IMG/VR virus record: IMGVR_UViG_2913112809_000002
Length of the DNA stretch: 64,000 nt
DNA from: a virus
Taxonomy: Duplodnaviria; Heunggongvirae; Uroviricota; Caudoviricetes
Direction: 5' to 3' (one strand)
Shown: piece by piece, positions 39,001 to 42,000 of the stretch
Numbering within the stretch: position 1 is the stretch's first letter
Layout of the letters: every line of letters starts with the position of its first letter
Program-made: the position numbers

Positions 39001-42000
39001 GACAAAGCAGAAGTCGAACGGTGGGTGCGACTGCATGAAATAGGTGACTTTCGGGCAGAAATAACACCGCTTTATACAGCCCAACCAGCGCCGGTAGCTC
39101 CAGATGGTTGGATAAGCTGTAGTGATGCAGTTCCTGCGGAATACTGCGATGTGATTCTTCGCGATGATCTCGGGAATGTATTCCCCGGTTCCTGGGATAA
39201 GGTTTTTTGCCCCATTCGTGGCGGGAATAAGATGGCTTTTGTGGACAAAGACGGCATCGAAGTAGAGAGCTCAACTCACTGGATGCCGCTACCGGAACCA
39301 CCGCAGGAGGTGAATCGATGACCTGGCCTGAAGCATTCACAACGGTAGGAATTGCAATGGCGGTGGCGCTGGTGGTGTATTCGATTTGCCGCTGGGGTTG
39401 ACGTAATTACTAATCCGGGGCTATATTTCCGACGCGCCAGCAAAATCTGGCGTCGGGATTAGCACCCCGGATGTTTACGGAGCGATATGAGACGCGCCCG
39501 CGTCTTTTTTTCATATCGTTTGCACAGTCACATTCGCGATTTATGGCGGGCTGTGTGGGGGAGCCGAAAGGCTCGCCGGTTTCCGTACCCGGTAGTGCTA
39601 ACCCCGCACAGTTCGCCACCACGATGATTAGCACCTGACGGTGGCGATAATGTCCAAATGTACGGAGTAATCGTTATGACCACTCAGATTTCTGTCGAAA
39701 CTCTTTCCCCAATTACACACAACCAAATTCCCGTTATCACTACCGAGTTACTGGCACAGCTTTACTGTACCGAGATCAACAACATCAAAGTAAATTACAC
39801 CCGTAATTCCGAGCGTTTTGTTGAGGGTAAACACTTTTTCAAGATTGTTGGTGATGAGTTGAAAAAATTTGCGGGTTACTTTAAGTAACTCACAAACGCC
39901 TGTTTCCCCCAAAACCCGCTCCCTCATCCTCTGGACAGAACGCGGAGCAGCCCGCCACGCAAAAATGCTGGAAACCGAGCAGGCGTGGGAAGTGTTCGAA
40001 AAACTGGAAGACTGTTATTTCAGTCAGAAACGCCCGGAAGAAAAAGCACCGGATTTTATGCCACGCCGCTTTCTTCTCACTCTGGTCAATAACCAGTGGT
40101 ATGTTGAGCCTGTGTCTGCTGATGCGTTTGTGGCAACGCCGGACTCACTGGTGGCCAGGCTTCAGGCCGAGAGATATCTGTTCGATCAGCAGAGCATAAA
40201 GGAGATCATCCAGACCTGCCTGAAGATGATTTAAAAATTCATTCCGATATGGGAATCCCCATATCGGGAGAATATTACCACCGGGGATAAAATGATTTGC
40301 GGTGAAAGGGAAGTTAAGTAGAATTGCTGCGGGTGCTTGAGGCTATCTGCCTCGGGCATGAATACCAACGGCAGATAGAGAAAAGCCCCAGTTAACATTA
40401 CGCGTCCTGCAAGACGCTTAACATTAATCTGAGGCCATATCTATGCGACACATAGAGATTAGCCTCTTACGGACCGAAAGGTCAAGGAGAAGCAGGCTAT
40501 GAAGCAGCAAAAGGCGATGTTAATCGCCCTGATCGTCATCTGTTTAACCGTCATAGTGACGGCACTGGTAACGAGGAAAGACCTCTGCGAGGTACGAATC
40601 CGAACCGGCCAGACGGAGGTCGCTGTCTTCACAGCTTACGAACCTGAGGAGTAAGAGTGACCAGGCGAGGGAGAAATCCCTCGCCGCCTCTGACGTGTCA
40701 GGCATTCTCAAAGCACCCGCACTTAACCCGCTTCGGCGGGTTTTGTTTTTTTCTGGCATTCTGGTTTACAATCCACTCGTCAGCCTGAACAACTGACACC
40801 TGCTGCGCCAGCAGAGAAAACCGATGGCGCAAAATTCCAGACCACACAATTCTGATAATTCAGCCGTCTTTGCCAGCAGGCACGGGCGGCGTTCCCGCAC
40901 ATTCAAATCTGACTGGTTCCAGCACGACCCATGCACTGAAGAACAAGCCGAATGGCTAATTCAGAACTACCGCAGACGTGGGTATGAGTTTCAGAAAGAC
41001 CTCAGTCTTGACTTCCGACACTGGATAATCTCAGTCAGGCTGCCGTACTCCGAGCGCCCACCGCGTCCATCCCGCACATTCCAGCAACGGATCTGGAGGT
41101 AATGTGAGAGCATTACTGACACCTGAAATTGCCCCGCGTATGGGGATCGTACTGTTCAGGCCAGGTTCAGAGCTGATGCCATTGTTTATGCAGGGGCGTG
41201 TCTTGCTGGAGCCTGAGCCGGAACGTTATTCATCTTTTGCCAGTGGTGTCGTTCCGGCGGCATCGCAACCGCTGGCGGATGATCCTGTCGTTCGGGCCGT
41301 ATTCCGCAATGAGGCAGTGATCCGTCGTGCAGGTGGCGTGGAATGCCTTGAAAGCTGGTTACTTCGTGAAAAAGGCTGTCAGTGGCCTCATTCTGACTGG
41401 CACAGCGAGAACATGACCACAATGCGTCACGCGCCGGGAGCAATCCGTTTGTGCTGGCACTGCGATAATCAACTGCGCGATCAGTTCACAGAACGGTTGG
41501 AATCAATGGCAACGGATAACTGCGTCCGTTGGGTGTTGTCTGTTGTCCGTCGGGATCTCGGTTTTGATGAAAGTCACGTTGTGACAATGCCGGAACTGTG
41601 TTGGTGGCTGGTTCGTAATGACCTGGCGGATGCCTTACCTGAAAGCGCAGCCCGTAGGCTCTGAGATTACCGAAGCCTGCTGTGCAGTCTGTCACTCGGG
41701 AAAGTGACCTCGTACCTTCAGTTCCGGCCACCAGCATCATCCAGGATAAAGCGAAAAAGGTGCTGGCGCTGAAAGTGGATCCGGAATCGCCGGAGTCTTT
41801 TATGTTACGCCCCAAACGTCGCCGCTGGGTTAACGAAAAGTACACGCGCTGGGTTAAGACACAGCCGTGTGCATGTTGTGGTAAGCCAGCCGACGATCCC
41901 CATCACCTGATTGGTCACGGTCAGGGAGGGATGGGGACAAAAGCCCACGATATTTTCACGCTACCGCTGTGCCGGGAGCATCACAACGAACTTCATGCTG

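Follow-up and report, generated by a model that had tools for sequence, protein, structure and literature searches.

A homopolymer miscall as the very probable cause of a split ORF6N antirepressor gene in a draft-assembled Escherichia prophage

The window analysed here, a stretch of 64,000 nucleotides of tailed-phage DNA (IMG/VR record IMGVR_UViG_2913112809_000002), carries two open reading frames, ORF A and ORF B, which lie in different frames and overlap at 39869-39888. The tract GAAAAAATTT (39861-39870) is located at the break between them, and the gene caller of the source contig annotated two genes of 70 and 121 aa at this position. The locus comprises the following features:

39676-40234, plus strand: whole ORF6N antirepressor gene; without the extra A one 185-aa ORF, 100% identical to P0139 (WP_441316606.1)
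39676-39888, plus strand: ORF A, 70 aa, from the ATG at 39676 to the stop codon at 39886-39888; the N-terminal 62 residues of the 185-aa protein, then 8 out-of-frame residues (KFAGYFK) and the stop
39862-39867, plus strand: A6 run, the frameshift site; one A more than the A5 of relatives
39869-40234, plus strand: ORF B, 121 aa, +1 frame relative to ORF A; ORF6N domain (C-terminal third) plus a C-terminal domain without annotation

ORF A matches the Pfam ORF6N profile (PF10543) at positions 3-53 of 86 (49.5 bits) and ORF B at positions 65-86 (15.4 bits), thus one ORF6N domain is cut in two. Removal of a single A from the A6 run fused the halves into a 185-aa protein that covers ORF6N positions 3-86 and, with 72.9 bits against a gathering score of 27.8, belongs to the family. 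An earlier note, made from the sequence alone, had described an antirepressor-like ORF6N gene lying in two frames at an A6T3 tract, and the ORFs, the Pfam halves and the position of the tract bear this description out.

On record, ORF B occurs on one contig, PDHY01000019.1 (GCA_004745255.1), which matches the window at 100%. The contig belongs to the draft genome PDHY00000000 of strain E4742, a member of Escherichia cryptic clade II from Hong Kong intertidal sediment (PMC6639607). The draft was produced from single-end Ion Torrent reads of 35-400 nt at ~50x, assembled with MIRA and SPAdes, and gaps were closed manually on the basis of repeats (PMC6639607). The protein P0139 (WP_441316606.1, Escherichia sp. 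E4742), placed in the same 90% cluster, equals the repaired window protein at every residue; its gene is present on the 5.12-Mb contig VATS01000001.1 from a later E4742 assembly (GCA_005781185.1, hereafter VATS01), as well as on a Logan contig of the run SRR6148341. The Logan assembly of this run has A5 at the ORF6N site, as does VATS01. Zero substitutions over ~24 kb lead us to infer that the run SRR6148341 comes from the Ion Torrent sequencing of E4742 itself (SRX3260361).

Comparison of window positions 38318-50234 with VATS01 revealed 0 substitutions and six one-base indels, which lie exclusively in homopolymers:

39505: T7 in the window, T6 in VATS01
39862: A6 in the window, A5 in VATS01
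41657: GG in the window, GGG in VATS01
43869: T8 in the window, T7 in VATS01
43892: A8 in the window, A7 in VATS01
44931: CC in the window, CCC in VATS01

Between 17160 and 38538 the window corresponds to another VATS01 prophage, again with 0 substitutions and with two homopolymer indels (31628 and 29826), which brings the total over ~33 kb to eight one-base homopolymer indels and not one substitution. At 39505, 39862 and 31628 the Logan contigs of SRR6148341 read as VATS01 does, and at 29826 they read as the window does; one further difference, at 21426, is theirs alone. Site 29826 is the 3' end of cII (91 aa vs 98 aa), and VATS01 may hold the error there.

Three coding indels of the ORF6N prophage break the ORF6N, DUF968 and holin genes in the window only, and one-base repair of each gave a protein identical to its VATS01 counterpart. 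The DUF968 gene (41104-42092) is split by the indel at 41657 into ORFs of 186 aa (41104-41664) and 136 aa (41682-42092), and the addition of one G restores the 329-aa VATS01 protein. In the gene of the holin (Phage_holin_8, 44919-45313) the indel at 44931 puts the start codon out of frame with the body; the gene caller stretched the ORF upstream to 181 aa, and repair yields the 131-aa protein of VATS01. Logan contigs that carry a 662-aa tail protein match the window at 100% identity along 8.2 kb and 4.2 kb, hence the errors of the window are unevenly spread along its length. At the right end of the window, exact look-up of the 350-aa product of the ORF at 54948-56000 returned no record with that exact product.

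With the repaired protein as query, more than 4,600 relatives were retrieved. The closest nine (P0001-P0009) show 67-92% identity at 100% coverage and have the same C-terminal domain; eight of them are single ORFs of 183-186 aa, and P0002 (229 aa) was called with a longer N-terminal extension. The repaired protein also matches PHROG 2379 (phrog_2379), annotated 'anti-repressor', with an E value of 1.9e-69. Over its N-terminal 120 residues it shares 94-97% identity with E. coli prophage proteins that are very common, for instance P0022, present on 979 contigs, and its C-terminal ~65 residues form a rarer module with no Pfam family, common to P0001-P0009 and found in a handful of clusters. The alignment of homologues is continuous across the break (...GDELKNLRVTLSNSQTPVSPKTRSLILWTERGAARHAK...), and the LWTERGAARHAK and AWEVFEKLEDCYF motifs do not vary in it. 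Alignment with intact homologues, which had been proposed as the way to find the indel of a single split gene, was carried out on DNA and showed that the A-run is exactly where the extra base lies: the window reads GAGTTG-A6-TTTGCGG, the homologues GAGTTG-A5-TTTGCGG. The A-run alleles of relatives were read from loci fetched by exact-protein look-up. Each of the eight intact relatives inspected has GAGTTG-A5-TTTGCGG or an in-frame variant; A5 with identical flanks was found in VATS01 (L007/L014/L017), in the Logan assembly of SRR6148341 (L008) and in three E. coli loci (L004-L006), while the window's own contig has A6. Among ~15 billion proteins, the exact 70-aa and 121-aa split products occur on one contig each, and the peptide DELKKFAGYFK is absent from the listed members of the N-terminal fragment cluster. 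A scan with GAGTTGAAAA-N{0,2}-TTTGCGGGTTACTTTAAG, which covers the A4, A5 and A6 alleles, gave zero matches, and the exact stretch is present in no GTDB representative genome. Megablast against complete E. coli genomes returned only one record with at least 80% locus coverage, that of PSJ-22, at 86.6% identity, which shows that the window does not come from E. coli proper. The PSJ-22 homologue (L001 3076-3700), is the closest one in E. coli to share the C-terminal domain; in it a TGG codon is replaced by the nonsense codon TGA (NNQW to NNQ*), and the annotation lists a pseudogene. Furthermore, the homologue of E. coli T426 (P0129) carries a frameshift farther downstream, close to another A5 run (GAAAAACTGG).

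The VATS01 copy of the ORF6N gene is intact and sits midway along a complete prophage, after the replication genes and before Q, in a gene series that reads int, YdfE, DicB, cI, cro, YdaT, replication genes, DUF4014, DUF551, ORF6N, hok, DUF968, RusA, Q, lysis and terminase. The window equals a different VATS01 prophage (prophage 1) up to 39137 and the ORF6N prophage (prophage 2) from 38318 onwards. Positions 38318-39137 are an 820-bp exact repeat common to both prophages, with a 65-aa ORF, DUF4014 and the 5' part of DUF551, and it is inside this repeat, ~1 kb upstream of the ORF6N gene, that the window switches from prophage 1 to prophage 2. The left arm of prophage 1 would be expected to continue to xis-int-mdtABC, and the PDHY contig of the window itself ends with the prophage 2 left arm, which stops in the same repeat. 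Since the repeat exceeds the Ion Torrent read length, the two prophages are ~1.1 Mb apart in VATS01, the contig of the window ends in the repeat and gaps were closed manually by means of repeats (PMC6639607), the prophage junction of the window is probably a chimeric join, although a real recombination between the prophages at the repeat could also have produced it. The proposal in the earlier note that the gene is decaying at a prophage junction finds no footing here, the gene being intact in mid-prophage in VATS01 and the junction inside the repeat probably a mis-join.

Several other elements were observed in the two prophages. Immediately downstream of the antirepressor gene lies a hok/sok type I toxin-antitoxin module (40331-40654), composed of sok (40331-40501, Rfam, 101 bits) and a 51-aa hok ORF (40499-40654) that carries the Pfam tag HOK_GEF and is of the same type as HokD/RelF. 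A Lambda cIII thermoregulator RNA (34049-34107; Rfam RF01804, 86 bits) is located in the left operon of prophage 1. Phage-borne tRNA pairs, Thr(TGT)+Asn(GTT) and Thr(TGT)+Gly(TCC), are located at 22853-23008 (minus strand) and 43475-43628 (plus strand), one pair per prophage and each downstream of the antiterminator Q gene. A second antirepressor-type gene (46485-47180, 231 aa, Pfam ANT PF03374) is present in the late region of the ORF6N prophage, after the lysis genes.

Several explanations of the split were weighed. A reading that takes the extra A for a genuine +1 insertion which inactivates the gene, and the antirepressor for a true pseudogene in a decaying prophage of the sequenced culture, could draw on the apparent lesions of the PSJ-22 and T426 homologues described above and on the natural proneness of short A-runs to slippage. 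The lesion is, however, reproduced neither in VATS01000001.1 nor in the Logan assembly of SRR6148341, both of which have A5 and an intact ORF; moreover, eight indels with 0 substitutions in 33 kb do not resemble a biological mutation spectrum, breakage of three genes would need to be confined to the draft, in an otherwise complete prophage, and the draft platform was Ion Torrent, all of which makes a real pseudogene improbable. Nor do the data favour two normally separate genes, one for a short DNA-binding protein and the next for an independent small protein, as the gene caller's 70-aa and 121-aa annotation in the source contig would have it; the earlier note had named this arrangement, if seen in intact homologues, as what would overturn its single-gene reading. 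Both ORFs match parts of a single Pfam domain (profile positions 3-53 in ORF A, 65-86 in ORF B), homologues in their thousands consist of one ORF, and the nine that share the C-terminal domain have 183-186 aa or more, so that we give this arrangement next to no credence.

The earlier note had also raised regulated frameshifting. If ribosomes shifted frame by +1 in a programmed way, or transcription slipped, on A6, the outcome would be a regulated low amount of full-length antirepressor or a phase-variable switch; the zero-frame AAA AAA would allow tRNA-Lys to re-pair in the +1 frame and yield exactly the conserved ELKNLRVTLS, and expression of this gene would be under tight restraint. Yet the split is conserved in no relative: an in-frame A5 is present in all of them and in the same strain, and the split products are confined to one contig. 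In addition, a +1 shift is needed, but AAA AAA TTT GCG GGT has no adjacent stimulatory stop or rare codon, and one-base homopolymer differences of the same kind affect noncoding DNA as well as two nearby, unrelated genes. Tracts known for efficient transcriptional slippage or phase variation are generally longer than A6. We consider programmed frameshifting at this site hardly credible. A further scenario, in which the tract is truly mixed between A5 and A6 in E4742 cultures, slippage acts as a low-frequency on/off switch of the antirepressor and the draft caught the off state, is very unlikely with A5 in all inspected relatives; if true, A5/A6 slippage would also switch spontaneous prophage induction.

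Other assemblies of the same strain have A5, the differences are indels only, relatives are in frame and the split products are unique; we therefore read the split as a homopolymer sequencing or assembly artefact, very probably a miscall of homopolymer length in the Ion Torrent draft, with A5 read as A6. Eight indels and 0 substitutions in 33 kb, the Ion Torrent platform and the breakage of genes on the window side only are together the signature of homopolymer miscalls and not of mutation. Hence, among the three explanations first offered for the split, sequencing error is the one that stands, with an Ion Torrent source, two other assemblies at A5 and homopolymer-only differences behind it, while decay and regulated frameshifting fall away. 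As compared across these assemblies, the real locus almost certainly holds one intact 185-aa ORF6N-domain antirepressor, subject neither to decay nor to programmed frameshifting. The split of the DUF968 gene is an artefact of the same kind.

Two observations run against the homopolymer miscall. VATS01 itself is imperfect, as at 29826 the Logan contig sides with the window, and an A-run undercall in VATS01 would by chance restore the ORF6N frame too. Furthermore, in six of the eight differences between the window and VATS01 an A/T run is longer in the window, which could also stem from undercalling in a long-read assembly. Both concerns are countered by the G2/G3 and C2/C3 sites, which run the opposite way and also break genes on the window side only. 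A real A6 subpopulation, or a real mutation, may conceivably have been present in the DNA preparation of the draft. The miscall reading agrees with the false frameshifts of Ion Torrent and 454 bacterial drafts, where, as here, one-base homopolymer differences come without substitutions, several unrelated genes are broken within a few kb, and the breaks are gone in another assembly of the same strain; at the level of assemblies we see no material difference between that pattern and the present case. In the draft of the window, homopolymer indels occur about once per 4 kb, and a repeat-mediated mis-join is probably present as well; frameshifts, split genes, pseudogenes and odd prophage junctions in the window should be compared with VATS01000001.1 before they are interpreted.

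Rfam placed four elements above the gathering score next to the antirepressor gene, namely c4-a1b1, isrK and C4 directly upstream and sok just downstream. The upstream region contains:

39421-39473, plus strand: a1/b1 target sites for C4 antisense RNA (RF03163, 47.1 bits against a gathering score of 46.7, borderline)
39434-39510, plus strand: isrK-type sRNA element with a terminator T-run (RF01394, 74.4 bits against 50)
39539-39623, plus strand: C4 antisense RNA (RF01695, 78 bits against a gathering score of 45)
39628-39666, plus strand: b2 site TTAGCAC (39628-39634) and a2 site GTACGGA (39660-39666), from k-mer complementarity to C4

Within C4, GTGCTAA (39595-39601) is complementary over 7 nt to TTAGCAC at 39459 and at 39628, and TCCGTAC (39582-39588) is complementary to TACGGA at 39476 (6 nt) and to GTACGGA at 39660-39666 (7 nt), each of these being a raw k-mer match of 6-7 nt. 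The a2 site and the GGAG Shine-Dalgarno sequence, which precedes the ATG at 39676 by 9 nt, overlap. The terminator T-run of isrK is T7 in the window and T6 elsewhere (the indel at 39505). Small ORFs between isrK and the antirepressor gene were considered as candidates for an orf45 equivalent, but their frame hangs on this uncertain T6/T7 run and they are uninformative.

The region has the make-up of an immI-type module of phage P1: a C4 gene lies upstream of the antirepressor gene, and a1/b1 and a2/b2 sites are present, the downstream pair over the ribosome-binding site. In immI of P1 and P7 the c4 antisense RNA is said to block icd-ant translation, a finding reportedly made by Citron and Schuster in 1990. 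As in that region, two C4-complementary sites precede C4 and two follow it, the last one over the Shine-Dalgarno sequence. The present locus differs from P1/P7 immI in that the antirepressor is an ORF6N protein, unlike P1 Ant1/2, and in that it is located in the nin-like region of a lambdoid prophage; any icd-like coupled ORF would be hypothetical here. The isrK-orf45-anrP arrangement of Salmonella Gifsy-1 (PMC4825925) is matched as well, with isrK and its terminator followed by an antirepressor-like gene from 39676. The likeness to both systems lies in the C4, c4-a1b1 and isrK elements directly upstream of an antirepressor gene.

By analogy with these systems, C4 would pair with the b2 and a2 sites, and pairing at a2 would cover the Shine-Dalgarno sequence and hold off antirepressor translation during lysogeny. 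The antirepressor, once made, would bind to a repressor of the lambdoid CI type and inactivate it. Antisense control and antirepressor activity are both predictions drawn from this likeness. With its N-terminal 120 residues and its PHROG anti-repressor match, the protein resembles the ORF6N antirepressors of enterobacterial lambdoid prophages ('phage antirepressor Ant'), but these have P22AR_C (PF10548) or other common C-termini, in contrast to the rarer module found here. The homology evidence thus points to the real gene being an ordinary phage ORF6N antirepressor with predicted antirepressor activity, and a C4/isrK-controlled ORF6N antirepressor in a lambdoid prophage is a known arrangement.
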